From Gemmatimonadota bacterium (GTDB lineage: Bacteria; Gemmatimonadota; Gemmatimonadetes; Palauibacterales; KS3-K002), in contig CP070812.1 in the NCBI GenBank assembly GCA_020344015.1, forward strand, positions 2,740,126-2,804,125: a stretch of 64,000 bases of DNA. The letters are read 5' to 3'. Each line of letters opens with the position of its first letter. The stretch's first letter is position 1. The position numbers and the translations under genes were made by a program. The notes under the pieces are model-generated. The model was not told where the DNA came from, did not search any database, and saw nothing but the letters and a program-made list of their open reading frames with translations. This document shows, in pieces, positions 38,797-58,047 of this stretch.

Positions 38797-38875
38797 CGGC
38801 ACCCAGCGGTTTGCGGCGGGGAGGAGAGGAGAGCTAAACTTGTAACTTCAGCAACGATTGGTAAATATTGCATTG

Positions 38876-40320: not shown

Positions 40321-40458
40321 TGCACCGATGTGGAACTTTTTCCCTCTAAATCGTTATAGTTTATAGTCCTACCTCCCGTCGTCCCGGCGGCTTAGCGACC
40401 ACCCCCCAAACCCAGAGCCCCAGGCAGTCTCAGGCGCTCTCACGGCGATCACCCCGCC

Positions 40459-40533
40459 GTAACACGTCCAGTTACCGTTTGGTAACAACGGGTTCCGTCC
40501 CGGATCGACTTCCCCAGCGTAACCTGCTGTTAT
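40459..40533 (+). promoter_or_regulatory. Putative upstream activator sequences (GTAAC/GTTAC half-site cluster)
   Basis: GTAAC-N7-GTTAC-N6-GTAAC at 40459-40486, plus a further GTAAC at 40519. Same architecture recurs at 49036. Confidence 0.6.
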
Positions 40534-40557
40534 CTAACGAGTTAACCAGTGCGCCCA

Positions 40558-40575
40558 CTCGGCACGACTCATGCC
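40558..40575 (+). promoter_or_regulatory. Putative sigma54 -24/-12 promoter of the giant surface protein
   Basis: CTCGGCACGACTCATGCC has GG(40561)-N10-GC(40573), matching TGGCACG-N4-TTGC, ~100 nt before ATG 40672. Confidence 0.7.
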
Positions 40576-40671: not shown

Positions 40672-43600
40672 ATGGAAGACAGATTTGGATCACAGGTCAG
40701 CAGCGCCGCCGTCGGGGGCGAGGGCAGAGCCCCTGGCGAACGCGTGCCGCGCCGATCCGGCTCGCTCGGCCTGAAGAGGATCACCCTCGCCCTCGCCGCG
40801 GGCGTCTCGCTGCTCACCCTGCCCGGGGCAGCACTCGGCCAGGGTTGGTACGATCCCGATTGGGGCTATCGGAAGAAGATCACGATCGACAACACGATGG
40901 TGGCCGGCGACCTCACCAACTTCCCTGTTCTTCTCGACTTCACCGACACCGATCTCAGAGACAAGGCGCGCAACGACGGTTGGGACATCCTCTTCACCGA
41001 GGACAACGGCACGACCAAGCTCGACCACGACTTCGAGGACTATGACGGCTCGACGGGCGCAATAATCGTCTGGGTGGAGGTAACGAATCTCTCCGGGAGC
41101 GTCGACACCGACATCTACATGTACTACGGGTACGCCACCGTACCATCCAACCAGGAGAACGAGACCGGGACGTGGGGGAACGGATACGAGGCTGTCTACC
41201 ATCTACACAACAACAGCTTCGCGGATGCGACGGGTAATCACACCGCGACGAACAGTGGCTCGGCCAATGCTACCGGCATAGCCGGCGACGGGCGCAACTT
41301 CCTTCGCAGCGAAGACGATTACATCGACACGGGTTGGAACCCGAGCCTGACCGGCGACTTCAGCTTCGAGGGTTGGTTCCGGGCGCTTGGCCAGAGCGGC
41401 AGTGGCGATGTCTGGGGCGTTGAGGATCGAGGCGGCGGTGACAACTCGGAGATCCGTCTGGCGATTCGCGACACCGACGCCAACAACTCTGCCGACGGCT
41501 ACAATCTAGAGATCAAGGCCGATGCAGCAGGAGACATAAGCGACGAAGGCCCACTACCCGGCGACCCCGACGACGGCAACTGGCATCACATTGCCCTGGT
41601 ACGGGAAGGTTCGACCGGGCGCCTGTACTACGATGGCAGCTACATCACTCTGAACGACAGCCTCACCACTTCAGGCACCGCCGGCTTCCCAGTCAGCCTA
41701 CTGATGGGCGCACAGTGGGACACGGATGGCGGCGGCCCCCCCGCAGTCCGCAACCGCCTGAATGGCGATCTGGACGAGACCCGTGTCTCGACGGTACTGA
41801 GAACAGGAGACTACTTCGCCACCCAGGTCGCCAACGTCAACAACAGCGCGCCCGGCGGTTTCTACGACTTCCTCAGCGGCGAGGAGTTAACCGGCCTGAT
41901 CGGGCACTGGAATTTCAACGAGGGCAGCGGCCAGGTCGCAGCCGACGCCTCGCCCAGTAACAACGACGGTACCCTCGGACCGACTGCCGGCGTGGAGAGT
42001 GGTGACCCGACCTGGACCTGCAGCGGCACCGCCCTCGAGTTCGACGGCATCGACGATGAGGTCAAGCTCTCCAACGTAACCATCGGCGACAGGGCCGCCT
42101 GGTCGATTAGTGCCTGGATCAAGATGGGTCCCGATGCGGCGGACAAACGAACCATTTACGGTGAAGGCGATACCACGCAAAGGGAGTATCTCTACCTGGA
42201 CGTAGCTGAGGCCGGCTCTTACGTCACATTCTATTCTGAGGACTCCCCCGGAAGCGTGTACACCGAGCTCAACGGCACAACGAACGTAGAAGACGATACG
42301 TGGCACCTGGTCACCGTGGTACAGCGCTCGAAGACCGACCGGGTGCTATATGTCGATGGTACTCCCGAAGATAGCAGTACCCAAAACGCCGGGACGCTCG
42401 TCTTCAACACAGCCTCCATCGGCTACCTGAGATCCGAAGGCTGGGTTGCGGATCCGTTCCTGGGAACGATCGACGACGTCCGCATCTATGACTACGCCCT
42501 GAGCACGGCCGAAATCGCCACTCTTAACGCCAACCCTCCCGGCGCTTGCGGAGCTGCTGCCGGCGACGTGGTGATGATGGTGGTCGCCAACGCCGCCACC
42601 CGCGACCTGGTCGATGACAGCCTCGCGGCCTATCTGCAGACCCAAGGGCTAACGGTCGTCTTCGCCGACGACGACGATACCCGGGCCACCTACGACTCCA
42701 TCGTCGCCGCAGATGGTGTCGACGTGATCTACGTCTCGCCGACCTCCGGCTCGGCCGCTATCGGCACCAAACTGTACGACATCGGCACCGGCCTCGTGAT
42801 GTCGAACCGGGGTAACTGGGACAACTTCGAGCTGAGTGCCAACGACAACGAGGACAGCGGCACCACCACAGAGATCGTCGACAATACACACTTCATCACC
42901 CAGCCGTTCTCAACAGGCCTGTTGACGATCAACTCGGTCTCTGATTTCAGAGGCTGGGGGTCGGGTGGGTTCGGCGCCGGCGCCCAGCTGCTCGCGCAGT
43001 ATCCAAGCGATCCCACCCGAGCGATGATCCTCGTCTACGAAGCGGGGGCGCTATTGCAGAACGGCCAACCGGCCGTGGCGCGGCGCGTCGGCATGTACGT
43101 CGAGACGGAAACCTGGAGTAACTACACCGCCGACACGAAGACGCTGATCTACCGGTCGATCCTCTGGGGCGGCGGCCTCGCCGGCGCCCCCGGCGGCGAC
43201 GCCGTGACCTCAGCGGTGGCCGAGATATCGCCCAACGATGTCACGACCAACGACACCGGCATCGAGTTCATCTACGCGATACTCGCCACTATCGGCGGCA
43301 CCGACACCGGCGTCGATCGAGTCACGATCACCGTTCCCAACAGCTTCGGGCTTCCCACAGTCGATAGCGTCCGCGTCGGCGGCACGGCCGTGACGTATAC
43401 CAACAACACGGCGGCACGGCTGACGAGCTTCGACCTCGACACCAAGCTCGCCAGCACCGACAGCATCCAGGTCTACTTCACGGCCGACGCGCCGACCGCG
43501 CCGGACGCCACCGGTCAGGACTTCACCTCGACTGTCGATGACTCGGGAACCGGCGCGGCAGCTCAGTCGACGACCGAAGGCAGCGCCGACGGCGACGCGG

Positions 43601-46600
43601 GCGACAACAACGACTGGACCGTGACGACCACGGACAGCGGTGGAAGCGGGCCCACGCCCCCCGGCGGAATCTGTCCGGCGGCAGATATCGTCAGCACCGG
43701 ATCGACCATCACCAACGAGATGAAGATCCAGCACACCACATCGGCGGGCCCCGACAGGTTGATGCTTGTTGGCGTGTCCATCAACAACGACGACTCAGCG
43801 GATACGGTGATATCAGTCACCTACAACGGCGCCGGGCTCTCGCGCATCGGAACGGTACAGAACGCCGATGATGCCCGGGTCGAGATCTGGCAGCTCGTAA
43901 ACCCGCCGGCTCTGAGTGACACCGTCACCATCACTTTCGGCAAGGACCTTCTACGGAGCGCCGTTGCCGGCGTGATCACCTTCGCCGGCGCCGACCAGAC
44001 TCCCATCGCCGACTTCTACGGCGACTTCGCCGACGGTACGACCTCCAGCGTCACCGTCACCTCCGCCGCTGGCGAGATGGTATTCGCCCTCATGTCGGGT
44101 GAAACGACGGGCGTGCCGACGCTCCAGAACAGCCCGCCGGCGATCGAGCGCTGGAACCTGCTCGAGGCGGGGGCCCCGCCTGAGGAGTACGGCGCGGCCG
44201 CCACGGACAGCGGCGCCGCACCGAACGTCACGGTTAGCTGGACACACGGCAACGACCACTGGGCGGCGGGGGGTGTTTCGATAGTGCCAGCAGCCGCGTG
44301 CCTCAACGCCGCGCCCAGCATCTCGTCGGCGGCGGACCAGACCTTCCAGGTCGGAGACCCGACTACTGCCGCCTCGACCATCATCATCGCCGAAGACACG
44401 CTCTACCAGACGATCACTGACACCACCGACCTGCGTGTCCGCATCCCCGCGGGTCTCGACATGATCTGGGACACGCTGCAGGCCACCATCGTCGTCGGCG
44501 GCAACGCCTCCTCAAAGGTCAGCACCACGGTCAGCTACGAGGACGCCGGCAAGACCGCGGTGATAGATGTAACTACGAGCTTCGCTGCGCTCGACACGAT
44601 CACCGTCGACAGCCTCAAGTTCATGGACTTCGGCTCGGTCTCGGCAGCCGACAGCCTCGAGCTCGAAGTCAAGAACGACGGCCTCGTCTCCGCAGTCGAC
44701 GACAAGACCAAGGAGATCACCGCCGCCTCCAGTCCCACGATTCTCGGCCGCTACTGCTTCAACGAAGCGGCAGCCGATTCGAGCCCGTCGCAGGTACTGG
44801 ACGACCAGGCGAACCCGCTCCACCTGGGCATCACCTACAACGGGATGTCGTGGACGGAGCTGAGCGGAAACCGCGGTCTGGGCGCGGCGACGCATTCGGG
44901 AATCGCGAGCGCCGATGCGGCCGGCTCCAAGTACCCGACGAACCTCGACGGGGCCCTGCAGGCCACGCTCGTCGCAGTTACCGAGTGGACGGGCGGGAAC
45001 GGCGATCGAGTCGCGGGCTTCGTGGAAAGTGATGGGACCCGCATCTTCTTCCTGCTGACGAATGACGCCCCGGGCATCGAGCTTCGCATGCAAACCCAGT
45101 CCCGCAATATCCGGGCGGTGTGGTTCGGTCCGTGGGACGATGGCACGCGGCGCGTTTTCCACGCCGTCTACGATGCCCCCAACGCCACGCAAACGAAGCG
45201 TATCCGTCTCTACGTGGACGGCGCCGACCAGGGAGAGCCCGACCAGTGGGTCGCCGGAACCTGGCCCGACCAGACCGAGGGTCTGGACTTTAGCCCTGCA
45301 ACCGTCAGGGTCATCTCGCTGAACGAGCCCGCCCTCAGCAACCCACTGCCCGGGCACGTCTTCTACTTCGCCGTCCATGACGCGGCGTTCACTGACTCAG
45401 ATGCGTCCTCGTCCGCCACAGCGCTGCTCGTCGACGACGATTGCGGCGCCGTCGGCACCCCGGCCGTTACGTCGGCCACGGCCGAAATCGAACCCAACGA
45501 CGTGGCGACCGGCTCCACGGCGAACGAGTTCGTCTACGCGATCCTCGCCACGATCAGCGGCTCAGCCACCGGCGTCGACAGCGTAGCGATAACGGTCCCG
45601 GCCACTTTCGGCGATCCCACGGTTGACAGCGTCAGGGTCGGCGGCACTGCGGTGACGTACACCGACAACACAGCGGGCAGACTGATCAGCATCGTCCTGG
45701 ACACCAAGGTCTCCAGCACCGACAGCATCCAGGTCTATTTCGCCGCCGACGCACCAGGCTCGGCCGACCCGACGGGCCAGGACTTCACCTCCGCGGTTGA
45801 CGACACGAGCACGTCGGAGCTTCCCCAGACCACGACCGAGGGCAACGCCGACGGCGATGCGGGCGACAACAACAGCTGGACGGTGACGACCACGGACGCC
45901 TCCGGGGCCACGCTGCTCGGCCGCTACTGGTTCAACGAGGCGCCCTCGGGACAGACGCCGACCACGGTCTACGACGACCAGCCAAGTCCGGTCAACCTGA
46001 CCACCATCGTCTACGACACGCCGGTGGAGTGGACAGTAGTCAATGATCATCGCGGCCTAAACGGCGCTTCGGACCCACACTCAGGGATCGCCTACGGGAC
46101 CGCTTCGGGCACCAAGTACACGACCAATCTCGATGGTGCGCTAGAGGCGGCTTTCGTGGCGGTGGCCGAGTGGGCGCCCGCCGCCGGCAGTCAGCGCATC
46201 GCCGGTTTTGTCAGGTCCGGCGGTGCCCGAGTTGCCGAGCTCGTACCAGCGTCAGTCGGCGGTTTGAGTATCCGAATAATGACACAGGCACAGTCCATAA
46301 CGGCGCGGTGGCCCAGTGTAGCGAGCGATTCTACACGGCGAGTGTTCCACATCGTCTACGACGCCGACCACCCTGTTGATAGCCTACGGATCCGGCTGTA
46401 CGTGAATGGATCCCTTATGCCGGCCCCCACACTGGACAGTGGAACGTGGCCTGACCCAACCGACGGGTTGGACTTCAGCGCCGCCGACATCTTGCTGACG
46501 GCGGTCAACAACACCCCCGGCGACGCGACCAACCCGCTCAACGGCACGGTGTTCTACTACGCCGTCTACGCCGGCGCGCTTACCGATTCGGAGATCTCGA

Positions 46601-48894
46601 CAAACGCCACGGCGCTGCTCGCCGACGACGACAACATCACGCCGTCCGTCGCGGTCACGCCCGACGGGCTCGGCGCGCCGATCTTGCGGCAGGCGGGCAC
46701 CGACTACAGCTACGAGTTCGTCGTAGAGAACACCTCCAGCGTCCTGGACGACTACGACCTCCTGGCGAGCACCGATCCAGCCTCATCGTTCGTCAGCGTC
46801 GACTCGATCACCTTCAACGGCCTGAGCTTCACCTCGCCGCCCGACAGCGCGCTGCTCGTCGGCCTGGCCGCCGGTGTCTTTGACACGATCACGGTCTGGT
46901 ACACCGTGGCCAGCGATACCGACGGCAATGTCGATACGCTATACCTCGCCGGCCGCTCGGTGACCGAGGCCGCTGCAATAGACAGCGGCTACGTCGAGAT
47001 CGAGTACGACGTGCCGGTCGCGGGGACCCCGCTGGTCCGCTACTGGATCGACGAGGCGCCGAGCGGACAGGGCGTGGCGAATCTGATCGACTCGGAGTCG
47101 AACCCGATCAGCATGCCACTCACGTACGTCGACTCGATCCCGTACTTCGCCGGTGACCACGGCGGCTACCGCCACCTGCGATTCAACGGCCCGGACAACA
47201 CCGATACCGGCGGCGGCCTGGTAGACGTGGGCGGCACCAAGATGGACGGGGTCCACGGCTCGACGGTCGTCACGATCGAGGCGAAGTACGCCTTCGAGCC
47301 GGGCAGCGCCTGCACCGGTCAGGACGAGCGGATATTCGGAATCTCCGAGGATCGCGGTAGCGCTTACGGGCAGCTGCAGGTCCGCGGAATATCCGGCGCG
47401 CACACCCTGTCAGTCATGTGGGCCGGCGTCGGGACCGTCTACAGATACGGTCTGACCGGTGGCTGTAACCTGACCAGCGCCTCGGTGGTTCACTGGGTCG
47501 TAGACACCAACGAGGCCACGGACTCCGACCGCGTTCGGGCCTACGTCGGCGGCGTCCGCCAGACGGTCACCGTCCAGACCGGTGCCTGGCCTTCAGCTGG
47601 GGCGACTATCGACCTCGGGGCCGTGGGAACGCGAAAGATGTACGTGGGCCGTCCCTACTCCGGGCTAGCGACGATGAAAGGCAGGATCTGGTACGTCGCG
47701 CTATACCTGGGCGAGATGTCCGACGCCCAAATCGCGTCCAACGCATCGGCCCTCGCCTCGTCGGACGATACCAACACTTATGCGGCCACGGTCACTCCCG
47801 ACGGCGCGTCCGTCATGCGACTGGCCGGCACCGACTACAGTTACGCCTTCACGCTGAACAACGGTTCGAGTGTGCTCGAGGATTTCGACCTCTTGGCCAG
47901 CACCGACCCGGCCTCGTCGTTCATCACGATCGACTCGATAACCGGCGGCGGCATAAGCGATAGCGGCGTGGCTGATAGCACGCGCATCTACGGTGTCGAC
48001 GCGAGCGCCGATAGCACGGTCACCGTCTGGTACACGGTAGCGGCCGACACCGATGGCAACATCGACACGCTCTATCTCAGGGGCCGCTCGATCTCCGACA
48101 CGGCGCAATCGGACCTCGGCTGGATACAGATCGAGTACGAGACGATGGCGTTCACGGTCGCGCCCGACGGCGCCGACACCCTACAGCTCATGCCGACCGG
48201 CACCGCCGCCTCGTCGTCGTACAAGTTCACGATCACCAACAATTCAGCGTTGAGTGAGACGTTCGATCTGCTCGCCTTCGACGGCGCCGTTTTGACCGTC
48301 GACTCGATCACCGGACCCAACGTGAGCGGTGGCTCGCCCGGCGACAGCGCCCGCACCGGCGCCATCGCGGCGAGCGCCGAGGACAGCGCCTTCGTCTGGT
48401 TCACCATATCGGTCGGCACCGCCGGCGCCCTCGATTCTCTCTACCTCATGGGCCGCTCGGTGGGTGACCCCTCGGCCACCGACTCGGGTTGGGTATTCGT
48501 CGAGCTGCTGCAGCCGGATCTGGTGACATCGAAGGTCGCCAATCCGAACGGCACGCAGCCACCGGGCACCGACCTGACGTACACGCTGACGATCACGAAC
48601 AACGGGACGGCGGATGGAGTGAACGTGGTGACCGTCGACTCGCTGGCTGCGGAGGTCTACTTCCAGGTCGGCAGTGTCGTCACGACGCTGCCCGGCGGCA
48701 TGACCGACAGCATCGAATACTACGACGGTTGCGGCAGCGACGGCTGGAGCTACACGCCGGTCTCGGGCGGCGGTGGTGCACCCGCCGGCTACGATGCCTG
48801 CGCTGTCCGAATCCGCTGGACGTTGCTGAACGACTTCAGCTACGTCGCACCGAACAACACCGCAGACCTGGAGTTCGTCGCGAGAATAAAGTGA
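40672..48894 (+). CDS. Giant secreted surface protein (~2740 aa): DUF2341, LamG/concanavalin-like repeats, Ig-like repeats, C-terminal DUF11
   Basis: Signal peptide ending PGAALG|Q; WYDPDWGYRKKITID (DUF2341-like); GHWNFNEGSG...IDDVRIYDYALS (LamG); three repeat families; TSKVANP...YTLTITNNG...DSL (DUF11). Confidence 0.9.
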   Translation: MEDRFGSQVSSAAVGGEGRAPGERVPRRSGSLGLKRITLALAAGVSLLTLPGAALGQGWYDPDWGYRKKITIDNTMVAGDLTNFPVLLDFTDTDLRDKARNDGWDILFTEDNGTTKLDHDFEDYDGSTGAIIVWVEVTNLSGSVDTDIYMYYGYATVPSNQENETGTWGNGYEAVYHLHNNSFADATGNHTATNSGSANATGIAGDGRNFLRSEDDYIDTGWNPSLTGDFSFEGWFRALGQSGSGDVWGVEDRGGGDNSEIRLAIRDTDANNSADGYNLEIKADAAGDISDEGPLPGDPDDGNWHHIALVREGSTGRLYYDGSYITLNDSLTTSGTAGFPVSLLMGAQWDTDGGGPPAVRNRLNGDLDETRVSTVLRTGDYFATQVANVNNSAPGGFYDFLSGEELTGLIGHWNFNEGSGQVAADASPSNNDGTLGPTAGVESGDPTWTCSGTALEFDGIDDEVKLSNVTIGDRAAWSISAWIKMGPDAADKRTIYGEGDTTQREYLYLDVAEAGSYVTFYSEDSPGSVYTELNGTTNVEDDTWHLVTVVQRSKTDRVLYVDGTPEDSSTQNAGTLVFNTASIGYLRSEGWVADPFLGTIDDVRIYDYALSTAEIATLNANPPGACGAAAGDVVMMVVANAATRDLVDDSLAAYLQTQGLTVVFADDDDTRATYDSIVAADGVDVIYVSPTSGSAAIGTKLYDIGTGLVMSNRGNWDNFELSANDNEDSGTTTEIVDNTHFITQPFSTGLLTINSVSDFRGWGSGGFGAGAQLLAQYPSDPTRAMILVYEAGALLQNGQPAVARRVGMYVETETWSNYTADTKTLIYRSILWGGGLAGAPGGDAVTSAVAEISPNDVTTNDTGIEFIYAILATIGGTDTGVDRVTITVPNSFGLPTVDSVRVGGTAVTYTNNTAARLTSFDLDTKLASTDSIQVYFTADAPTAPDATGQDFTSTVDDSGTGAAAQSTTEGSADGDAGDNNDWTVTTTDSGGSGPTPPGGICPAADIVSTGSTITNEMKIQHTTSAGPDRLMLVGVSINNDDSADTVISVTYNGAGLSRIGTVQNADDARVEIWQLVNPPALSDTVTITFGKDLLRSAVAGVITFAGADQTPIADFYGDFADGTTSSVTVTSAAGEMVFALMSGETTGVPTLQNSPPAIERWNLLEAGAPPEEYGAAATDSGAAPNVTVSWTHGNDHWAAGGVSIVPAAACLNAAPSISSAADQTFQVGDPTTAASTIIIAEDTLYQTITDTTDLRVRIPAGLDMIWDTLQATIVVGGNASSKVSTTVSYEDAGKTAVIDVTTSFAALDTITVDSLKFMDFGSVSAADSLELEVKNDGLVSAVDDKTKEITAASSPTILGRYCFNEAAADSSPSQVLDDQANPLHLGITYNGMSWTELSGNRGLGAATHSGIASADAAGSKYPTNLDGALQATLVAVTEWTGGNGDRVAGFVESDGTRIFFLLTNDAPGIELRMQTQSRNIRAVWFGPWDDGTRRVFHAVYDAPNATQTKRIRLYVDGADQGEPDQWVAGTWPDQTEGLDFSPATVRVISLNEPALSNPLPGHVFYFAVHDAAFTDSDASSSATALLVDDDCGAVGTPAVTSATAEIEPNDVATGSTANEFVYAILATISGSATGVDSVAITVPATFGDPTVDSVRVGGTAVTYTDNTAGRLISIVLDTKVSSTDSIQVYFAADAPGSADPTGQDFTSAVDDTSTSELPQTTTEGNADGDAGDNNSWTVTTTDASGATLLGRYWFNEAPSGQTPTTVYDDQPSPVNLTTIVYDTPVEWTVVNDHRGLNGASDPHSGIAYGTASGTKYTTNLDGALEAAFVAVAEWAPAAGSQRIAGFVRSGGARVAELVPASVGGLSIRIMTQAQSITARWPSVASDSTRRVFHIVYDADHPVDSLRIRLYVNGSLMPAPTLDSGTWPDPTDGLDFSAADILLTAVNNTPGDATNPLNGTVFYYAVYAGALTDSEISTNATALLADDDNITPSVAVTPDGLGAPILRQAGTDYSYEFVVENTSSVLDDYDLLASTDPASSFVSVDSITFNGLSFTSPPDSALLVGLAAGVFDTITVWYTVASDTDGNVDTLYLAGRSVTEAAAIDSGYVEIEYDVPVAGTPLVRYWIDEAPSGQGVANLIDSESNPISMPLTYVDSIPYFAGDHGGYRHLRFNGPDNTDTGGGLVDVGGTKMDGVHGSTVVTIEAKYAFEPGSACTGQDERIFGISEDRGSAYGQLQVRGISGAHTLSVMWAGVGTVYRYGLTGGCNLTSASVVHWVVDTNEATDSDRVRAYVGGVRQTVTVQTGAWPSAGATIDLGAVGTRKMYVGRPYSGLATMKGRIWYVALYLGEMSDAQIASNASALASSDDTNTYAATVTPDGASVMRLAGTDYSYAFTLNNGSSVLEDFDLLASTDPASSFITIDSITGGGISDSGVADSTRIYGVDASADSTVTVWYTVAADTDGNIDTLYLRGRSISDTAQSDLGWIQIEYETMAFTVAPDGADTLQLMPTGTAASSSYKFTITNNSALSETFDLLAFDGAVLTVDSITGPNVSGGSPGDSARTGAIAASAEDSAFVWFTISVGTAGALDSLYLMGRSVGDPSATDSGWVFVELLQPDLVTSKVANPNGTQPPGTDLTYTLTITNNGTADGVNVVTVDSLAAEVYFQVGSVVTTLPGGMTDSIEYYDGCGSDGWSYTPVSGGGGAPAGYDACAVRIRWTLLNDFSYVAPNNTADLEFVARIK

Positions 48895-49035
48895 TGTGCT
48901 CCGGGTCACCCCCCGGCCCGGAAGAAAACCTCCCGCCACACACCCCGCCGGAACGAGCGCCTCCCCCGCGTGAGACCGGATGAACGGAGTAGCAACCGAC
49001 GTGGTCGAAGCGGCCCGGTCAGTCCTGCGACGGAC

Positions 49036-49111
49036 GTTACCGGGGCCGTTACTCACGGGTAACCGCCGAGGGCGTCACGCCCGCGGCCGGGGACTGGCCT
49101 GTCCCTGTAAC
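49036..49111 (+). promoter_or_regulatory. Second putative UAS cluster
   Basis: GTTAC-N7-GTTAC-N6-GTAAC at 49036-49063, plus GTAAC at 49107. Confidence 0.6.
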
Positions 49112-49156
49112 CCAATACAATACATCATCTTAGCCGATTCGAATCAAACCGGGCCT

Positions 49157-49174
49157 ACAGGCATGGAGCCTGCT
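49157..49174 (+). promoter_or_regulatory. Putative sigma54 -24/-12 promoter of the DUF11/OmpA operon
   Basis: ACAGGCATGGAGCCTGCT has GG(49160)-N10-GC(49172), followed by RBS AGGAGA and ATG 49218. Confidence 0.7.
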
Positions 49175-49217
49175 TTTCATTGGTCCGGCGTCCCCCGCCC
49201 TGAACTAGGAGACTCAC

Positions 49218-49418
49218 ATGCTTCTCAGGTGCCCACACTGCAGTCGATCTGGAGAACACGTACGCAGCGACTTCTTCGGCGATTGGGTCGTCTGCTCGGT
49301 TTGCGAGCTGCCCTTCGCCTGGCGCGAGGCGCGCTCCGAGTCGGACTCGGAGGGCGGCAACGGCAACGGGCGATCGTCGATCCAGCCACACGCAACACGG
49401 ACCCGCAACGACAGGTAA
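49218..49418 (+). CDS. Small zinc-ribbon protein (CxxC-x17-CxxC), 66 aa
   Basis: MLLRCPHC...WVVCSVCELPF, strong RBS, stop 5 nt before the next ATG. Confidence 0.7.
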   Translation: MLLRCPHCSRSGEHVRSDFFGDWVVCSVCELPFAWREARSESDSEGGNGNGRSSIQPHATRTRNDR

Positions 49419-49423
49419 CCACC

Positions 49424-49972
49424 ATGACAACCAGTTGGCGTAATGCCGCGACCGTGACGGCGGCGGCAGTTCTACTGCTATGCCCCCCCGCGTCGGCACA
49501 GGAGAGCGAGCAACCGAAGGCGTTGGTCATCACGGCCGAGAACCTGATGGCGGACGATGCCACCCACCAGGAGATAGCGAGAGAGGGTGGCGATCCAAAC
49601 ACGGTGCTCCCCGGCGACGTCATCCTCTATCGCCTGACATTCACGAACACCACCGAAGTCCCGGTCCGCAACGTCGAGTTCAAGGACCCGATCCCGACGG
49701 GCTTCCACCTCCTGATCGAGTCCGCGACGGCCGATCGGGATGACGTGGTGGTCACCTACTCGATCGACGGCGGCCAGGTCTATTCGGCCGAGCCGATGAT
49801 CGAGGAAGTGGTCGACGGCGAGCGCCTGACCCGCCCGGCGCCGCCAGAACTGTTCACCCACATCCGCTGGCTGGTGACGGGCTGGGTTCAGCCCGGCGCT
49901 CAGGTCACAGCGGAATTCCGCGCACAGCTACCCGCTGCTGACGCGCCCGAGGAGCCCGGCGAGCCCAACTGA
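49424..49972 (+). CDS. Small secreted DUF11 (conserved repeat domain) protein
   Basis: Signal peptide ending PPASA|Q; VLPGDVILYRLTFTN...DPIP; YSIDGG; THIRW. The longer ORF from 48980 covers the promoter, so the start is set at 49424. Confidence 0.88.
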   Translation: MTTSWRNAATVTAAAVLLLCPPASAQESEQPKALVITAENLMADDATHQEIAREGGDPNTVLPGDVILYRLTFTNTTEVPVRNVEFKDPIPTGFHLLIESATADRDDVVVTYSIDGGQVYSAEPMIEEVVDGERLTRPAPPELFTHIRWLVTGWVQPGAQVTAEFRAQLPAADAPEEPGEPN

Positions 49973-50017
49973 GGCCCGGGCAGAAGTCTTTCATTCGTCG
50001 CCTCATAGGAGGTAGCC

Positions 50018-51292
50018 ATGAGTAGCAAGGCATTGAAGGCAGCCCGGACCTTGATCTTGGCTGGGTTAGCCGCCGCCTTCGCCGCCACGACGGCGGAGGC
50101 ACAGACGGCGGAAGGCGATACCATACGGAACATCGCTACCGCGACCTTCACCGACGCGAACAGCAATTCGTACGCAGCGGTGGCGGACACGGTCGATATC
50201 ATCGTGGGGTTCCAAGCCGGTATCTCCGTTACGCCCGATGCGGGCACAGCGAGCCCACCGTCACCGAGCACTGCCCTAACGATGGCGTTCACCGTCGAGA
50301 ACATCGGTAACGGCGTCGATACGGTGCAGGTTGCCGAGGACTTGGGCCTCACGCCCGCGATGTTCGACAGCGTCGGGTACAACTGGAACTCGACCGATTA
50401 CACAACGCTGGCGGCCCTCAACACCGCTCTGGCCAGCTTCGAGCTGACGGCAAGCGCCACGACGACTATCAACGTCGTCTACAAGATCGCCGCAGATCAG
50501 GGTGGTGAGAGCACGGTCTACCAGCTGACGGCCACATCGGTTCGCGATGCCGGCGAATCGGATCCCGGCCAGTACACACTCACCGCCGGCGAGACGTTCG
50601 GCGTCACCGTCGTCGAGCAGGGCTCGGGCGTAGACACAACGACGGCCAACCTGCTTCCCGGCAACGGCCAGACGGTCGTGTTCACGGTGACGAACACCGG
50701 TAACGGTACCGAGTCGTTCGACCTGCTCACGAGTCAGGTCCCAGGGACTATGCTCTCGGTGACTGCGATGGCCGGAACAGGCGTCTCCCAGGGCGGTGAT
50801 CCTGACAGCGCCCGCGTCACCGACCTCGGACCCGGCTCCTCGGTCGACGTGACCGTGACGTTCAACGTGGCCGACCTGGCCGCGGGTACCGTCGACTCGT
50901 TGTTCTTCCTGGCGCGCTCGGTGGCGCAGCCGGCCACGAACGACGAGGGCGCCTACATAGTCACACTCGTCAAGCCTGCCTTGACCATACTCAAGGAGGC
51001 GTTCACCGACGCCGGCTTGACGACGGCGGTGGCTGGCAACGTGCTCCCGGGCCAGTCGATCTGGTACAAGATCACGGTCAGCAACGCGGCGGGCACGGCA
51101 GCCGCCCAGACCATCGACATCGACGACGACCTGCCGACGCAGGTCACCTACGTGGGCAGCGGCGATGACGGCAACCCGAACTGGACTATCTCCGGGACGG
51201 GCGGTCCGCCGTGGACTCACGTCGATGCACAGCTGACCACTCTGGGAGCAGGAGCCTCAGCCTACTTCTGGATCGAGGTCACGATCAACTAG
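50018..51292 (+). CDS. Secreted multi-Ig/DUF11 protein (candidate major subunit)
   Basis: RBS GGAGG, signal peptide ending TAEA|Q, AEGDTIRNIATAT N-terminal module, two Ig-like repeats (ENIGNGVDT / TNTGNGTESFDL), terminal DUF11 ending in Asn. Confidence 0.9.
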   Translation: MSSKALKAARTLILAGLAAAFAATTAEAQTAEGDTIRNIATATFTDANSNSYAAVADTVDIIVGFQAGISVTPDAGTASPPSPSTALTMAFTVENIGNGVDTVQVAEDLGLTPAMFDSVGYNWNSTDYTTLAALNTALASFELTASATTTINVVYKIAADQGGESTVYQLTATSVRDAGESDPGQYTLTAGETFGVTVVEQGSGVDTTTANLLPGNGQTVVFTVTNTGNGTESFDLLTSQVPGTMLSVTAMAGTGVSQGGDPDSARVTDLGPGSSVDVTVTFNVADLAAGTVDSLFFLARSVAQPATNDEGAYIVTLVKPALTILKEAFTDAGLTTAVAGNVLPGQSIWYKITVSNAAGTAAAQTIDIDDDLPTQVTYVGSGDDGNPNWTISGTGGPPWTHVDAQLTTLGAGASAYFWIEVTIN

Positions 51293-51310
51293 TGACCGAT
51301 CAGGCTTAGC

Positions 51311-54300
51311 ATGAGGCTCCTCGGCGTCATGGCGGGTAAAGGGCACGAGCCCCACGGTGATCGGAAGGTCGCCTTGGGGCTCTGCGTCCTTTTCTGCCTG
51401 ATTCTGGCACCCGAAGCTTGGGCGCGAGGGACACCGGCTGGCACCCAAATCCAAAACCAAGCGACAGTTAGCTACCAGGCCTCCAACGGATTCACGTTCA
51501 ACCTGGTCTCCAACACGGTCACCCTCACCGTCGGACAGGTGGCGGGTGTCGACCTGGAGCCACCGCGGAACAGCGTGGCCAATCCGGGGGTCACGGTACT
51601 CTTCAGTCACACGCTAGAGAACATCGGCAACGGGACCGACAGCTTCGCCCTGAGCGCGATCTCGCAGGCGGGCTGGACGACGCGCATCTACCTCGACGCG
51701 AATGGGGATGGCGCGCTGGACGCCGGTGATTCGCAGATCGTAGGCCCCATCACTCTGGCGGCCGACGACACCGTATACATCCTCGTTGCGGTAGACGTAC
51801 CGGGTTCGGCGACGGTCCGCGGGACAACCGATCTCGTCGACGTGCAGGCCACCAGTCAGTTCGACGGCTCGGCGACCGATGCGCTCCAGGATGTCATCGA
51901 CGTCCCGAGCGTTGGAATCACCGCGAGCCTCACAAAGATCGTCGATCTCGGAAGTGCGATGGTCGGCGATGTCCTCACATACACGATCAACTACAGCGGG
52001 GTTGGCCCGAACACCGCGACCAACTTCCAGACCTTTGATCCTATCCCGCTGGGTACGACCTACGTGCCCGGCACGATGCAGTGGAACGGCACGCCGATAA
52101 CCGACATCACCGGCGACGACGAAGGCTACTTCGACGGTGTGGCGAACCTCGTCGTCTTCCAGTTGCCGACGATCGCAGGCGGCGATGCCGGTACGTTCTC
52201 GTTCCAGGTCCGCGTCGACGGGCCTAACGACCCAACCACCGTGGCCGCGGCGACCTACGAGACGATCGCAGGCACCGACTCGGTCGCGTCCAACGTCGTG
52301 ACAACGACTCTCATCCAACCCGAACTCAGCATTCAGAAGCTGCTGAACAGCGCCAACATCGCCTATGTCGGCGATCAGGTAAGCTACACGCTGCAGTACG
52401 CCAACTCGTCAGCGTCGGTCGTCGCTCAGAGCGTCGAAGTGAGTGACACCCTGCCGACGGGTCTCGATTTCGTATCCGCCGTGCCGGCGCCGACGGCAGT
52501 GAACGGCCAGGTCCTCACCTGGACGATCGGCGACGTCAACCCCGGCGAAAGCTTCGACATCCAGCTCACCGCACAGGTCAGCGACATCGTGCGCGACACG
52601 ATGACGGTCACCAACATCGCGGTGATGGCTGCGCTGAACGCTACCGCCCAGGAGCTAGCACTCTCCCAGGCGGTCCAGCTCGTCGGACTACTCGCCGACC
52701 AACTGACGCTCGACAAAGCCGCCGACGTAATCGAGGTCGGCATCGGCGAAGTCGCGCCTTACACGCTGGCCGTAGAGAACAACGGACTAGTCGCGCTTTC
52801 CGATGTCCGTGTCCACGACAGGCTGCCAAACGGCACCGTCTACTCGGAGGGCAGCGCGACCGGTGTCGACTCGGTGCAGGTCGACGGACGCAGAATCACC
52901 TTCTTCTACGCGGGGCCCATCGACCCCGGCGACACGCACTACATCCACTACGCGATCGCGGTCGTGTCCGCCGCCGAACCGACGCTGGCCAACGTTGCCT
53001 ACGCCACCGCCGAGAACGACTTCGTCAGATCGGAGGACGTGACAGCCTGGGTCCGTGTGCGCAACGCCTATCCGCTCGAGACACGCGTCGCGATCGGAAA
53101 GGTCTGGATCGACCTGAACGACAACGGCGGCCAGGACCCCGGCGAGCCCGGTCTACCCGGCGCCGACATCTGGACCGACGACGGCGATGTCGCCAGCTCC
53201 GACAGCGACGGGAAGTTCTCGTTCAGGAATCTGCGCTCCGGGCGCCACGCCTTCCGGCTCGACCCGGCGACGATACCAGCCGGCTATCGGCTAGCAGGGA
53301 CCAGTGCTTCGGAGGACCTGATCACCCTCAACGCCGACGGCTGGACGACACCGCGGATCAATTTCCGCCTCGTCCCGCTCGAGACGACATTGTCCGAGGT
53401 CCACCTGCCCATCAGCTGGCGCTTCGCGGCCCGTCCGCTGTGCGCGAGCCTCGACGAGATCTTCCCCACCGCGGAAGGTGACCGTGCGACGCTCACCCAC
53501 TTCGAGACGAACAGCGCGAACCTGCAGGACGGCCAGGCCCTCGCTCAGCGCGTCGCCCTCGCGCTCGCCAATAGGCCCAGGTGCCGTGTCGAGCTCACTG
53601 GACACGCCGACCCACGCCCCGTGCGAGGCGGCCCGTACTTCAGCAACCTGAACCTGTCACAGGCGCGAGCCGATTCGGTTCGCGGCGCATTGCAGGCCTC
53701 GGGCCTCGACAACAGCATCAGCATCCGCGCCCTCGGAGCGACGGATCTGGTGGCGGAAGGGGATGATCCTTACTCGCTCTGGCTCAACCGTCGCGTCGAA
53801 CTGCGTTTGAGCGGGCCCGAGAGCAATGCCCTCTCGCGGCCGGTGGTCGAGTACGACGTCCTGATCACCAACGAGTACGACGTGGCGCTCTCCGGCCTCG
53901 CCATCCGTTTCGTGCCGGCGGCCGACTCGGTGGTCCTCATAGTCGACGACTCGGTCCAGCTCAGCCTGTACGGCCACCCCACCGTCCTGCCGCCCATCGA
54001 TCCGTACTCGCGCGTGACGCTGCGCGCCTGGACGGTCTCGGGCGCCGACTCGGCGGTCGCCGTGCTCGAGCGAAACGAGCGCTCCAGCGGCTGGCTCGCC
54101 GCCGCCGTGCACAACTACACGATCCCGGTCAGCGGCACCGATGACGTCCACGCTGTCGCTGACAGGCTGCCCAGCCCCAGCAAGCTGCCGCCGGGAACTA
54201 GTGTCGAGATCGTCTTGCTGCCCGCACCGGCAGGCTGGCCGGAAGCGACTTACTCGCTGCCCGAGGGCTGGAAGCTGGTCGAGGGCTCGGTCACGGTCGG

Positions 54301-57300
54301 CGGTCTGCCGGCGCCCGATCCCGAGATCCGCCGCGATTTGACAGGCGCTCAAGTGCTTTACTGGCGGTTCCGCGGCCGCGCGATCGAGCCGATCGCCTTG
54401 AAGCTGGGTCCGAGCGACGCGGCCGAGCCGCTAGAGGTTGTGAACGTTGCGCGGCTGCGAACCGATGAGCAGCGACAGGAAGAGCACCGACGAGCGTTCC
54501 TGGCGGGGCCGGCTGTCGAGATCTTCAGCCCGAAGGACGGCACGGTGCTGCGCAGCGACAAGCTGTTCATCGGAGTGCGCGGCGAGCCGCGCGCCCCGGT
54601 CACGCTGTTCGACGGGGACTCGGTGATCGCGGAAGAGCACATGCGCGTCGACGGCGTTCACGATTTTGTCGCGATTCCGCTCTCACGTGGCCCGCACACG
54701 TTGCGCGTCCGCATGACGAACTCCTGGGGGCAGGAGCGCTGGGACAGCCTCGCGGTGCACGTGACTGGCCTGCCGGCTGAAATCGCCAGCGAGGTCACGG
54801 CGCTACCCATGGTCGCCGACGGGCACACCATCGCAACGATCCGGGCCCGCGTGCTCGATCGTTGGGGTGTCCCCATGGTCAACCCGACAAACGTTACGGT
54901 CGTGAGCGACGGCGCCGAGGTGCTGGGCTCCGACACCGATCTCTCGTCCGTCGGCCTTCAGCTACTCTCCGACGCGGCCGGCTGGTTGCGGATCGACCTG
55001 CGTCCGGGGCTCGAGATCGGAACCGGCAAGCTGACGCTAACAGCAGGTGACGCGGAGACCGAGATCGAGCTCGAGCTGGTTCCCCCGGCACGGCCGCTGA
55101 TGATCACCGGCGTGGGCCAGGTCGGTGTGGGCGCAGCTCCCGACGCTTTCGGCGCCATCACCGCACGCGGCCGGATCGACGACAAGACCTCGGTTATCCT
55201 CAGTTACGATAGCCGCCGCCTCGACGCCGGTCGCAATTTCTTCGGCCGTTCCTTCGACCCGCTCGAGGAAGCGCGCTACCCGATCCTCGGGGATGCGAGT
55301 CAGATCCGAACGATGAGCGCCTCGCAGTACGCGTTCTCAGCCCGCGTCCAGCGCGGCTTCGACTGGCTGGCCCTCGGTGACGTCTCGACTAATGAGTTCA
55401 GCAACGGACTATTACTGAACAGCTACAACAGAGCTTTGCCCGGCGCCGCGGCCCGGATCTCCACCGGCCCTGTCGTCTGGAAGGGGTTCGGCAGTTCGAC
55501 GAGTCAGAGCCTGCAACAACTCCAGATCCGCGGCGCCGGCACGTCAGGCCCTTACAGCCTGCAGCCGAACATTCGCCCGGGCACCGACCACGTGGTCATC
55601 GAGACCCGCGCGACCGAGAACACGCAGCGCATCATCAGCCAGCAGCAGCTGGTCCGCTACGTCGACTACCAGATCGACTACAGCCGCGGCACGCTCCTGT
55701 TTAAGCGCCCGGTGCCAGCCGCCGATCCCTACGAGAACCCGGTCTTCATCGTGGTGTCGTACGAGGCAGAGGGCGGTGGTCGGGAACAGATCGTTTGGGG
55801 CGCTCGCGCCGCGGCCGACGCTGGATACCTCATCAACGTCGACTCGCTACGCATCGGCGCTACCTACATCAGCGACGAGCAGGCGGCCGGTGGCAGACAG
55901 GTCCTGGCCGGCGCCGATGTCCGATTGATCCATCACGGTGCCGTCGACGTCGGCGCCGAGCTCTCTTACTCCCAGTCGCCCAGCTCCGACTCCGCCGACA
56001 TCGCCACCGCGATCGACGGTACGGTTAACCTGTTCGGCGGCCACGTGAACCTCTCGGCCGGCTGGATGCGGGTCGGCCAAGAGTATCGCAACCCGTCGAA
56101 CCTGGGGCTGCGCGCCGGGACCGAGGAGATCAGAGCGGCCGGCGGCTTGCGGATCGGTCCCAGCGAGCTGCGCTTCGAGCACGAGCGTCAGAACTTCAGG
56201 GCGGAGCGGGTCCGCCGCGAGCGCACCACCGGCGGCATCATTCAGTCTGTCGGCAGGCAGCTGCAGATCGATCTGCGCGCCGCTCAGGATCGGTTCGTCA
56301 ACGCCGGCACCACCGACCGATCGCAGGCCGGCGAGGCAAAGATCACCTGGAACCCGACGCCGCAGTTCAGCCTCTGGACCGAAGGCCGCTACCAGTTCGA
56401 GACGACAGGCAACATCGTCCTGCCGAACCACCTCGGTGCCGGCGCGATGTACCGGGTGTCGCCCAGACTCGCCCTGGAGACCGGCTTCCGTCAGGTGATG
56501 ATGCCCGACTCGCTCGGCTACTCCATCGCCAGCCTCGGTGTACGGAGCGATATCGGGCTCGGCACCCAGGCCTACGGTGAGTACCAGCTGATCGGTGGGG
56601 CCGACGGCTCACACAACGCCGCCGTCGTCGGGCTCAACAACCAGCTCCGCCTCGCCGACGCCTGGGCTCTCAACACGATGTTCGAACGGCGTTTCGGCCT
56701 CGACGACGCCTCGCTCGCCGACCCGGTCCGCGCGCTACCCTTCTCGCAGCCCGAAGAGGACTACTGGGCCGCCGGTCTCGGCGTCGAGCTACTGCCGCCC
56801 GACGCGCCCTAACGGCTCAGCGCGCGCGGTGAGTACCGCGACGGCGAGTTCATGACCAGTCGCCTGGCCACGCTGGCCGGCGACGTCGCGCTGGATCGCT
56901 CGCTGGCGATCCTATCGCGGAGCGAGTACCTGTGGACCGAGAACACCGCCGCGCTCGGAAGTCCGATCAGCCAGCGCAAATCCACGCTTTGGGGGCTTGC
57001 CTTCCGTCCCACCGGCAGCGACGCGCTCAACGTGCTGACCAAGTTCCAGTGGCTCGAGGAGAACAACCCGATGAGCGGCGGCGTGCTGGGCGCGGACGGT
57101 GACGAGCGGCGCATCATCGGTATCGCGGAGGCGATCTGGGCACCGTTCAAGTTCAGCGAGCTCGCCGCCCGCTACGCCGCTCGCCGTACCGAGGGTGAGC
57201 TGGTCCACGCCGACTCCACCGTCCAGAACCTCGTCTCCTGGGCCGACTACGTCGGCAGCCGCATCAACCTCGACTTCACTCGCTGGCTCGCCGTCCGCGG

Positions 57301-57535
57301 TGAGGGCCGCCTCTTACTCGAACACAACACCAACACTCAACGCTGGGACGCCGCACCCTCGCTCGTCCTCATCCCGATCGAAGGATTCGAGGTCCAGGCG
57401 GGCTACCGCTTCGGCGACCTCCGCGACCCGGACTTCGCGGTGCGCGGCGGTGACGGTTGGTTCGCCGTCTTCAGCGCGCGGCTGACCGAGACCGTGTTCC
57501 CCACCTCGGCCGATTTCTGGCGCCACCGCTTCTAG
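51311..57535 (+). pseudogene. Large outer-membrane protein (DUF11 x3, SdrD-B-like, OmpA-like, Ig-like, C-terminal beta-barrel) interrupted by in-frame TAA at 56810-56812
   Basis: ORFs 51311..56812 and 56852..57535 are in the same frame and read DAP*RLSARGEYRDG across the stop. OmpA motifs GHAD, LSQARA, NRRVE. Terminal Phe. Could be a real nonsense allele or a sequence error. Confidence 0.8.
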
Positions 57536-57605
57536 GCCCCGTAATACATCAACCCTGGCCCTGCATTGCACCTTCGAATCCCGTGATGTGATGGTCCGGC
57601 ATCCG

Positions 57606-57964
57606 GGTTTTGGGCGTCGGGGGGGTCGTCTCGCTCCGGCCTCCCCCGCGCTCGCGGCTGGGCCGCGATCGCAGGGTCGCTAAAACCAGCTCCGCTCGGA
57701 CGACCCGCCCCGACGCCCCCAACCGATGAGTGAGTACGCACCGCTGGTCAGCAGCCTCGATCCAAGCCGGGAGGAGCCGGGGGACCAACGAGCGAAGCTG
57801 GTGTTAGCGACCCGGCTCAGATCCTCAGGCAGAGTCTGTGGGTGAGGCGACGGACGACCTTGCGGGAACCACTGATCCTGACTGCCGGGTCGGCCGGAGC
57901 GAGCGGTCCCCCGGTTCCGACCCCCCGGGTCGGCCGGAGCGAGCCGTCCCCCGGCTCTGACCCG
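57606..57964. repeat. REP/BIME-like mosaic of interlocking inverted repeats plus a 40-bp tandem duplication
   Basis: IR 57606-57633/57697-57724; IR 57674-57698/57789-57813; direct repeat 57885-57924/57925-57964. Confidence 0.75.
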
Positions 57965-58047
57965 CCGAACACGGAGTCAGGCAAGCCTCGGATATTGAAC
58001 TTATCCGCCGGCGCTGCCATCCTATGAGCGGTGCCTGGAACGGGGGG

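Follow-up and report, generated by a model that had tools for sequence, protein, structure and literature searches.

Bacterial pili are classed by their assembly machinery, as chaperone-usher, type IV, curli, type V, or sortase pili. In chaperone-usher pili (FimA/PapA, FimH/PapG, FimC/PapD, FimD/PapC), one operon encodes the adhesin of the tip, the subunit that is repeated, a small accessory protein of the periplasm, and a single outer-membrane barrel, and the incomplete Ig-type fold of each subunit is completed by the N-terminal extension of the next. In the fibrillar adhesins built on DUF11 (PF01345), a domain now named CLIPPER, the fold is a CnaA-like Ig domain with an Asp-catalyzed Lys-Asn isopeptide bond (PDB 9IFR), and the described stalks are tandem repeats in one chain with intramolecular bonds (Protein Sci 2025, PMC12617251). 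Here we analyze five genes of a sediment Gemmatimonadota bacterium, known from the sequence of a metagenome-assembled genome (MAG), that lie on the + strand between 40.5 and 57.5 kb of a 64,000-nt stretch of contig CP070812.1 (hereafter the window) and that encode a giant protein, a Zn-ribbon peptide, a small and a mid-sized CLIPPER protein, and a protein ending in a very large predicted β-barrel. The operon lacks the machinery of the known pilus classes and yet has every part that a fiber would require, and it is conserved across the whole phylum and beyond. We propose, with a probability of roughly 60%, that it builds a head-to-tail surface fiber through the completion of a naturally split CLIPPER domain.

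In the proposed fiber, the chain would run from the giant protein as the tip, through n copies of the mid-sized protein (mid), to the barrel protein, and every joint would be one reconstituted CLIPPER domain. The missing strands of each acceptor would be supplied by the first ~40 mature residues of the next subunit, either mid or the barrel protein, and the joint would be locked by a spontaneous isopeptide bond between a Lys in the first strand of the acceptor (mid K326, tip K2621) and an Asn of the donor (mid N38, barrel protein N49), with an Asp of the acceptor catalyzing, much as in a natural SpyTag/SpyCatcher pair. The small protein, which has Ala in place of the Lys and no donor, might bind donors reversibly as a periplasmic cap or chaperone, or might instead cap the distal end of the fiber. 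In the barrel protein, the final subunit of the chain and the outer-membrane part of the system would coincide; the ~40-strand barrel would anchor the fiber and is the only portal candidate, and the OmpA-like domain would link the protein to peptidoglycan.

The operon resembles those of chaperone-usher pili in its set of parts and in the incomplete Ig-type folds that a neighbor's N-terminal extension would complete, and growth here would likewise proceed tip first and base last. There is no homology between the two systems, however. The usher has 24 strands (PF00577, with a plug and PapC N- and C-terminal domains), whereas the barrel here has ~40 predicted strands and is fused to the last subunit; a chaperone-usher extension of ~10-20 residues donates one G strand (PF00419), whereas here ~40 residues would donate two to four CnaA-like strands; and the two-domain PapD-like chaperone (PF00345/PF02753) donates its G1 strand, whereas the accessory protein here looks like an acceptor and a covalent lock is predicted. 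A first-pass annotation of this DNA had likened the gene set to a chaperone-usher pathway; the likeness stands as an analogy, supported by synteny, by the barrel model, and by the distribution of donors and acceptors, but not as family membership, the complemented unit being two to four strands of a CnaA-like CLIPPER domain that is probably locked by an isopeptide bond. Sortase pili (BcpA, SpaD, GBS80, RrgB) offer the CnaA-type isopeptide domains that are structurally closest to the reconstituted domain, and their subunits are covalently linked, as is predicted here; they differ in that our locus has no sortase or LPXTG motif, that the bond would be a Lys-Asn isopeptide formed in trans rather than a sortase-made Thr-Lys bond, and that the host is diderm, with an outer-membrane barrel as the predicted anchor. 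With the CLIPPER fibrillar adhesins the operon shares the domain family, the predicted Lys/Asp/Asn triad and, as in some of those adhesins, an OmpA-like anchor, but here the domain would be split across chains as a joint.

Sortase-free fibers that combine N-terminal donor-strand complementation with an intermolecular isopeptide bond have been described in the archaeal threads (Saci_0406; PMC9715654) and in the "exchange and lock" of Clostridium perfringens BsaA (bioRxiv 10.1101/2024.11.04.621531). Their folds are unrelated to CLIPPER (type-I-pilin-like and TasA-like), an outer membrane, a barrel, and dedicated tip and base subunits are absent there, and in the archaeal threads the bond links subunits n and n+2. 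The SpyTag/SpyCatcher pair is an isopeptide domain cut before its last strand that reassembles and locks covalently, as we propose here; unlike the natural, CnaA-like split of our operon, which would be repeated for polymerization, it is man-made, has a CnaB (CnaB2) fold, and forms a single pair. The type V pili of Bacteroidia (Fim/Mfa) are built from lipoprotein precursors whose N-terminal strand is cleaved and whose donors are C-terminal, whereas the donors here are N-terminal and no lipobox Cys follows the signal peptides (…TTAEA/QTAEG, …EAWA/RGTPAG). In type V secretion a passenger is threaded through a barrel of 12-16 strands, in contrast to the ~40 predicted strands here and to the periplasmic-type OmpA domain that stands between stalk and barrel. 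A full-text search, with most subscription journals outside its reach, found no published description of a DUF11/CLIPPER split-domain fiber or of this operon in Gemmatimonadota.

Open reading frame (ORF) analysis of the window shows the five genes in the same orientation and at close spacing, at 40672-57535 (Table 1), as the first-pass annotation had described them. The ATG at 40672 was chosen as the start of the giant gene in agreement with the gene start called in a relative. Four signal peptides had been claimed, and all four large proteins start with a hydrophobic segment that leads into an AxA-type site, an assignment made by eye on the sequence rather than by a predictor. Domains were called by Pfam and NCBIfam profile searches at curated cut-offs, which bore out the LamG/DUF2341, DUF11, SdrD_B, and OmpA domains of the earlier list. 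By these profiles the barrel protein, mid, and the small protein are members of DUF11/CLIPPER (PF01345, TIGR01451): mid scores 28.4 bits with the Pfam model (cut-off 24.6) and the small protein 41.2 bits with TIGR01451 (cut-off 24). The giant protein matches LamG_3 (137 bits) and DUF2341 (32 bits); its DUF11/CLIPPER scores of 19.2 and 21.2 fall under both cut-offs (24.6 for PF01345; 24 for TIGR01451) because its domain is truncated. Taken as a whole, the earlier description holds for the genes, the domains, the barrel, and the absence of known export signals, but not for an uninterrupted protein of ~2070 residues, as the barrel gene of the window contains a TAA codon that we discuss below.

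By every membership test that we applied to the sequences and models, the operon is outside the chaperone-usher, sortase, and type V pili, the autotransporters, and the type IX secretion system (T9SS). No LPXTG motif was found at the C-termini of the operon proteins (tip ...EFVARIK, mid ...IEVTIN, barrel protein ...FWRHRF), and the sortase family is absent from the gene lists of the loci. Pfam returned no match to the Usher, PapD-type chaperone, or Fimbrial families, and NCBIfam no usher match, in any operon protein; nor do the operon proteins match the autotransporter and inverse autotransporter barrels of Pfam (PF03797/PF11924) or the T9SS C-terminal domain in Pfam or NCBIfam. The giant protein, which had been noted to lack a known export signal, has no Pfam or NCBIfam match at E <= 0.01 to the autotransporter, RTX, T9SS C-terminal domain, LPXTG, or PEP-CTERM models, the five signal classes that had been named.

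The argument for a split domain begins with the ends of the subunits. In family alignments, the tip, mid, and small proteins all terminate at one strand (...fvarIr-stop, ...fw.rv.iN-stop, and ...qVtaef.a plus a tail, respectively). The Pfam DUF11 match of mid halts at profile position 84 of 114, which is the last residue of the protein, and that of the tip covers only profile positions 1-50 of 114, stopping at the C-terminus. The donors of mid and of the barrel protein, at the other end, look like the closing strands of a complete CLIPPER domain, N.A.v.y...G...S..v...v. In the mid family the donor is the best-conserved region (77% mean column identity), and the mature N-terminus (first ~40 residues) reads, after the AQ of the signal peptide, TPEGTVITNTATVTYTDANGN.Y......V.VTVGF; the donor of the barrel protein has a conserved motif related to that of mid, GTPAGTQI.N.A.v.Y....G.....S.Tv.l.VgQvAG. 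The donor motif is absent from the tip and small proteins in the family alignments. This distribution fits the roles that the first-pass annotation had assigned: mid, its polymerizing subunit, carries both a donor and an acceptor; the barrel protein, its platform, carries only a donor, as expected of a base; and the giant protein, its tip adhesin, has no donor and varies strongly in its N-terminal part, as a distal tip would. The small protein, considered a chaperone or accessory, is an acceptor only, which fits an accessory or cap but not a strand-donating role, given that it would accept a strand.

Natural variants of the operon cut or join the same domain. In eight loci (L006, L010, L011, L013, L028, L058, L061, L068) the barrel gene is present as two genes, cut inside CLIPPER domain 1. 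The product of the first is a secreted protein of ~300 aa with the C-terminus ...GGDSGTVTFQVRVG-stop (...GTVTFQVRVG-stop), and that of the second has its own signal peptide (...AQ) followed by TVVSNTAAATYETIAGTDSVASNSVQTTLVFP (TVVSNTAAATYETIAGTDSV.SN); in the window the counterparts of these pieces are contiguous in one chain, within CLIPPER domain 1 (...GGDAGTFSFQVRVDGPNDPTTVAAATYETIAGTDSVASNVVTTTLIQP). A single domain is therefore whole in some genomes, while in others two exported proteins share it, the break lying ahead of its last strands. The extra ~300-aa secreted subunit of these eight loci lies between the mid and barrel genes, and the number of separate subunits therefore differs among species. 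A fusion of the opposite parts occurs in locus L017 (1193-3271), where the mid acceptor (...ASRFFWIRV), a 12-residue linker, and a barrel-type donor (EIRSVVQASYEASNGLAYQAQSDTLVMFF...) with its next ~300 residues are encoded in one frame; the stop codon and the signal peptide between the parts are absent, and the acceptor Lys is replaced by Gln. This fusion would be a naturally occurring cis counterpart of the joint that we propose in trans, although we are cautious in relying on it, given that it comes from a single MAG and may be an assembly artifact.

In the window the mid and barrel genes share a frame and are separated by TAG TGA and five codons. We used AlphaFold2 (AF2) to model a fusion of mid residues 313-424, with the stops as Gly, to the signal peptide and donor of the barrel protein, on an alignment of 17 naturally in-frame paired rows plus unpaired rows. 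The model has a predicted template modeling score (pTM) of 0.70, with predicted local distance difference test (pLDDT) values of 80-94 for the acceptor and below 50 for the linker and signal peptide. The donor forms four strands (barrel protein residues 46-49, 51-56, 62-66, and 70-74; pLDDT 86-91), and since the acceptor is the sole folded partner in the construct, the donor is therefore docked on the acceptor in this model. Foldseek aligns the whole construct (191-209 columns), and its top matches are isopeptide pilin domains of Gram-positive bacteria, namely BcpA (E 2e-7, root-mean-square deviation 2.9 A), SSA1632, SpaD, and GBS80, together with the CLIPPER structure 9IFR (TMt 0.63). Together with the natural split and fused forms, this model supports donor-strand complementation, which the first-pass annotation had suggested looking for.

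The residues of the predicted isopeptide bond are distributed unevenly among the joints. The acceptor Lys and Asp of mid (K326 and D370 in the window) are present in 47 of 47 sequences and its donor Asn (N38) in 45 of 47, the other two having Asp. In the tip alignment the acceptor has Lys in 26/36 and Asp in 37/38, and the donor Asn of the barrel protein occurs in 30 of 41 fused-type proteins and in 9 of 11 split forms; the window has the full set (tip K2621, mid N38 and K326, barrel protein N49). The mid Asn is retained in ten loci whose tip lacks the Lys, and the mid Lys in ten loci whose barrel donor lacks the Asn. From these two invariances we infer that the partner of mid is another mid subunit, with mid polymerizing via a covalent joint. 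The conserved residues thus point to a covalent mid-mid joint, and about three quarters of species would have covalent joints at the two ends as well.

The N-terminal 1000 residues of the giant protein, which include the LamG/DUF2341 part, have matches in close relatives only, whereas its C-terminal module (~135 residues) is found upstream of the small and mid genes in 34 of 39 loci, with a few others downstream or on the opposite strand. Tip proteins elsewhere are 417-2142 aa long and have unrelated heads; all have a signal peptide and none the donor motif. From the variable, lectin-like character of its head (LamG, DUF2341), the tip may adhere to surfaces rich in carbohydrates. In the small family (49 aligned homologs) the position of the isopeptide Lys is occupied by Ala in 46, Val in 1, and a gap in 2, and the domain end (...qVtaef.a) is followed by a variable tail. 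The small protein of Smithella also has the TAE motif and Ala at the Lys position. The Zn-ribbon peptide was found by tblastn at the equivalent position in 20 of 39 loci, and its sole Pfam match is to the zinc-ribbon-type family Lar_restr_allev (20.9 bits, below the cut-off).

The stalk of the barrel protein also matches the NCBIfam model of an isopeptide-forming fimbrial domain (TIGR04226, 39 bits), and the OmpA-like match is absent from many of the more distant homologs. Two Ig-like domains precede the barrel, with Foldseek matches to the Ig-like modules of glycoside hydrolase family 2 and to domains D0-D1 of intimin/invasin. We modeled residues 1040-2074 with AF2, reading the TAA as Tyr, on a 69-sequence alignment. 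The model (mean pLDDT 80.8, pTM 0.67) has ~40 long strands that continue up to the C-terminal ...FWRHRF, ending in Phe, together with a disordered loop (model residues 266-298) and a small inserted β domain (388-425, DYQIDYSRG) that includes the most conserved motif of the family, DYQIDYxxG. The C-terminal barrel claimed by the first-pass annotation is in this way confirmed at the level of the model: the region folds as a large β-barrel outside any known barrel family, ~40 being the number of predicted strands. The barrel-family profile has no match among PDB sequences. The best large-barrel neighbors in Foldseek are weak, namely SprA of T9SS (6h3j; 36 strands) with TMq 0.22, Deinococcus SlpA (30 strands) with 0.21, and LptD (26 strands) with 0.17-0.19; they share the size class with our barrel, but at these TM-scores, with no sequence or Pfam relation and with other flanking domains and operon context. 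Neither PapC nor FimD is within the top 50 matches.

In the window the barrel frame, which had been read as one continuous protein, is broken by the in-frame TAA at 56810-56812 into 1833 aa and a 227-aa ORF in the same frame. This codon encodes Tyr in >=90% of 54 aligned homologs. The closest of these (P0001-P0004, 82-92% identity) are uninterrupted proteins of 2068-2075 aa that read ...PPNAPYRLSARGEYRDGEF across the site, and the position is open in all 69 related loci that cover the region, including the closest (L023, 95% identity). A public sediment-metagenome assembly of the same strain (run X1) contains an 894-nt contig at ~18x that spans window positions 56759-57652 with a single difference, A>C at 56812, and the neighboring contigs are identical to the window; C at 56812 is also found in contigs of two further runs (X2, X3). 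Given Tyr in the homologs and TAC in the contig of the same strain, the TAA is most likely a consensus or assembly error of the MAG for TAC (Tyr), or a minor allele, and we treat the gene as intact. Recoding or read-through of the TAA was considered and rejected, as the contigs read TAC and the relatives all encode Tyr. In some long-read MAGs the barrel or mid genes are broken or truncated (L049, CAWJMT010000037.1, and several "barrel-only" proteins of ~1000-1200 aa); these forms are probably frameshift errors, not real variants.

Scanning one genome per species gave 80 loci, all from Gemmatimonadota (Gemmatimonadales and Longimicrobiales) and extending to ~41% identity. Synteny was scored by tblastn of the window proteins against the loci, with denominators restricted to those with enough flank (43 with >=3.2 kb upstream; 27 with >=6 kb). 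All 43 Gemmatimonadota loci with >=3.2 kb upstream have the small gene and then the mid gene immediately before the barrel gene, so the co-occurrence that the first-pass annotation had made a requirement of its proposal is found throughout this set. The barrel region has hundreds of full-length homologs, those with names being from Gemmatimonadota. A search of 1.8 billion cluster representatives with the barrel-family profile returned 3279 members (50% clustering), 1436 of them at E <= 1e-30, and the named distant members are from Latescibacterota, Thermodesulfobacteriota, Smithella, and Syntrophorhabdaceae. The locus of Smithella (Thermodesulfobacteriota) encodes a tip of 1017 aa, a small protein of 172, a mid protein of 627, and a barrel protein of 2460, with the layout and terminal motifs of the window. 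From the sequences, the proposed class would reach at least Gemmatimonadota and Smithella as an operon, and Latescibacterota, other Thermodesulfobacteriota, and Syntrophorhabdaceae as a barrel family. The operon of Smithella sp. (L083:2377-15383) adjoins a Fur-family regulator, not a sigma-54 activator, and has an AsmA/YhdP-like gene downstream on the opposite strand.

Several observations weigh against the fiber that we propose. The evidence is entirely computational, and the barrel gene as assembled in the window contains a stop codon. The AF2 fusion ties the donor to the acceptor artificially, without a negative control. Appending the true donor raises the Pfam score of the acceptor from 30.9 to 36.6 or 37.2 bits, and reversed, shuffled, or unrelated peptides give 31.2-35.1; we gave this concatenation test little weight as support, a gain of ~6 bits for the donor against 0.3-4.2 for the controls being non-discriminating. 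An hhalign comparison of the donor with the complete domain aligns it to the expected columns (106-122 of 141), but with E 0.012 and a probability of 3.7%. The tip Lys (26/36) and the Asn of the barrel donor (30/41) are not universal, so many species may have non-covalent joints at the chain ends. The periplasmic OmpA-like domain between stalk and barrel implies that the stalk either threads the barrel or remains periplasmic, and a folded 2740-aa tip would have to cross the outer membrane.

This topology would also suit an envelope scaffold, in which the barrel protein would be a tether between outer membrane and peptidoglycan, or a major porin of the SlpA/OmpM type, and the stalk and subunits would be periplasmic. 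The order of stalk, OmpA-like domain, Ig-like domains, and barrel places the stalk in the periplasm unless it is threaded through the pore, and Deinococcus SlpA is among the best, albeit weak, barrel matches (TMq 0.21). We nevertheless regard a scaffold as improbable: variable lectin-like tip heads and a CLIPPER stalk are what one expects of an exposed adhesin (PMC12617251), many family members lack the OmpA-like domain, and the probable sigma-54 switch described below argues against a housekeeping envelope component. The proteins could instead be independent surface or secreted adhesins that form no polymer, the N-terminal segment being a sorting tag for the barrel as the translocon of a new secretion pathway. 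A strongly conserved peptide immediately after the signal peptide is a common look of sorting tags, and with its ~40 predicted strands the barrel is comparable in size to SprA, the translocon of T9SS. However, the tip and the small protein have no such tag yet would need the same route, and the barrel protein itself bears it. In the fused natural forms the tag runs on from a CLIPPER domain that it completes, and in AF2 it docks as strands on the acceptor; we therefore find this explanation unlikely.

A narrower analog of the chaperone-usher pathway would have the small protein as a strand-donating chaperone, occupying the grooves of the subunits in the periplasm, and the barrel as a catalytic usher that replaces the chaperone strand by the N-terminal extension of the next subunit, with non-covalent joints. 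The logic of the operon is alike (tip, repeating subunit, small accessory protein, and a single outer-membrane barrel), the subunits have incomplete Ig-type domains and N-terminal extensions, and the small inserted domain of the barrel could be a plug. We give this possibility little credence based on the absence of Usher, PapD-type, and Fimbrial Pfam matches and of PapC and FimD among the top 50 Foldseek matches, on a small protein that is truncated like the acceptors, has no donor, and would accept a strand, and on the invariance of the Lys, Asp, and Asn of mid, which non-covalent exchange does not need. Finally, the system could be dead in this organism, with a real TAA truncating the barrel after ~28 of 40 strands in a decaying operon. 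The window sequence does read TAA; but the remaining operon genes are undamaged, C stands at 56812 in three runs, including the otherwise identical 894-nt contig of X1 at 18x, and the closest relative (L023, 95% identity) is intact, and we therefore consider decay very unlikely.

We thus favor a head-to-tail fiber with split CLIPPER domains as its joints. That the operons also constitute a new pilus class of outer-membrane bacteria across phyla, free of chaperone, usher, and sortase, self-locking covalently through a split domain, and with a ~40-strand barrel as both anchor and portal, is a broader claim that the sequences and models leave evenly balanced in our judgment. If correct, the proposal would add a principle of fiber assembly in Gram-negative bacteria, self-catalyzed covalent polymerization via a split isopeptide domain, and, among very large outer-membrane barrels, a new family that may let folded proteins through. 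It would also provide natural orthogonal tag/catcher pairs of potential use in protein engineering, and a first handle on surface attachment in Gemmatimonadota, which are abundant but poorly studied in soil and sediment.

Table 1. Features of the putative fiber operon and its upstream region, in window coordinates
Feature	Position	Strand	Description
Sigma-54-dependent response regulator	38858..40258	+	Sigma54_activat 209 bits, Response_reg 93, HTH_8 47 (Pfam)
Candidate sigma-54 -24/-12-like element	40561..40574	+	GGCACGACTCATGC, exact GGCAC-N6-TGC, ~100 nt upstream of giant ATG
Giant (putative tip) gene	40672..48894	+	2740 aa from ATG at 40672; signal peptide, DUF2341, LamG_3, repeated Ig-like modules, C-terminal acceptor module; no donor
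DUF2341 in tip	40975-41163	+	Pfam
LamG_3 in tip	42043-42519 plus second stretch	+	Pfam
Tip acceptor module	48511..48891	+	Truncated CLIPPER-like domain, ends ...LEFVARIK-stop; Lys2621 (48532), Asp2656 (48637)
Zn-ribbon peptide gene	49218..49418	+	66 aa; CxxC...CxxC, without signal peptide
Small gene	49424..49972	+	182 aa, secreted; single acceptor-type CLIPPER domain, donor absent, Ala38 at the isopeptide-Lys position, Asp88 retained
Mid gene	50018..51292	+	424 aa; signal peptide, N-terminal donor, two or three Ig-like middle domains, C-terminal acceptor
Mid donor segment	50102..50221	+	Residues 29-68, QTAEGDTIRNIATATFTDANSNSYAAVADTVDIIVGFQAG; Asn38 at 50129
Mid acceptor module	50969..51289	+	Ends ...YFWIEVTIN-stop; Lys326 (50993), Asp370 (51125)
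Barrel-protein gene	51311..57535	+	2074 codons with 56810-12 read as Tyr
Barrel-protein donor	51428..51556	+	Residues 40-82, GTPAGTQIQNQATVSYQASNGFTFNLVSNTVTLTVGQVAG; Asn49 at 51455
Stalk, three complete CLIPPER/DUF11 domains	51917..53050	+	DUF11 92.3 bits in three stretches; domain 1 = residues 203-340
SdrD_B-like domain	53099..53317	+	PF17210, 36.6 bits (cut-off 29.7)
OmpA-like peptidoglycan-binding domain	53501..53764	+	PF00691, 40.5 bits (cut-off 27.2), residues 731-818
Two Ig-like domains just before the barrel	54515..55087	+	AF2 model residues 30-220, pLDDT about 85-93
Giant β-barrel region	55100..57484	+	~40 predicted strands
In-frame TAA, codon 1834	56810..56812	+	Near the start of strand ~29 of 40

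A homolog of the sigma-54-dependent activator lies upstream on the same strand in 20 of the 27 loci with >=6 kb of flank, and based on this conserved adjacency the activator probably switches on the operon. The candidate promoter element matches GGCAC-N6-TGC exactly, a pattern that occurs 4 times in the window where chance would give 2.65 occurrences, so that the motif alone is not above chance; a scan of the window for TGGCAC-N5-TTGCW with two mismatches allowed gave 15 matches against 18 expected and missed the operon site. Repeated GTAAC/GTTAC half-sites (ccgtaacacgtccagttaccgtttggtaacaacgg ... gcgtaacc) at 40440-40540, upstream of the sigma-54-like element, are candidate activator sites. 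Divergent from the activator, on the - strand at 35643-38802 of the window, are genes for a hybrid kinase (GAF-PAS-HisKA-HATPase-REC), an Hpt protein, and a single-domain receiver, which probably form a phosphorelay controlling the fiber operon.

Downstream of the operon are two genes that overlap (58024-60046), one for a Ddl-like ATP-grasp ligase and the other for a Peptidase_Mx metallopeptidase with multiple zinc ribbons. We considered this pair as a component of the system and rejected it, given that it is kept only in the closest relatives. Farther downstream are type IV pilin-like genes with the N_methyl motif (62144-63088, - strand), for which a link to fiber export is conceivable; genes of this kind, GspH- and PilX_N-like, are also present in a relative (L001:21505-23473).

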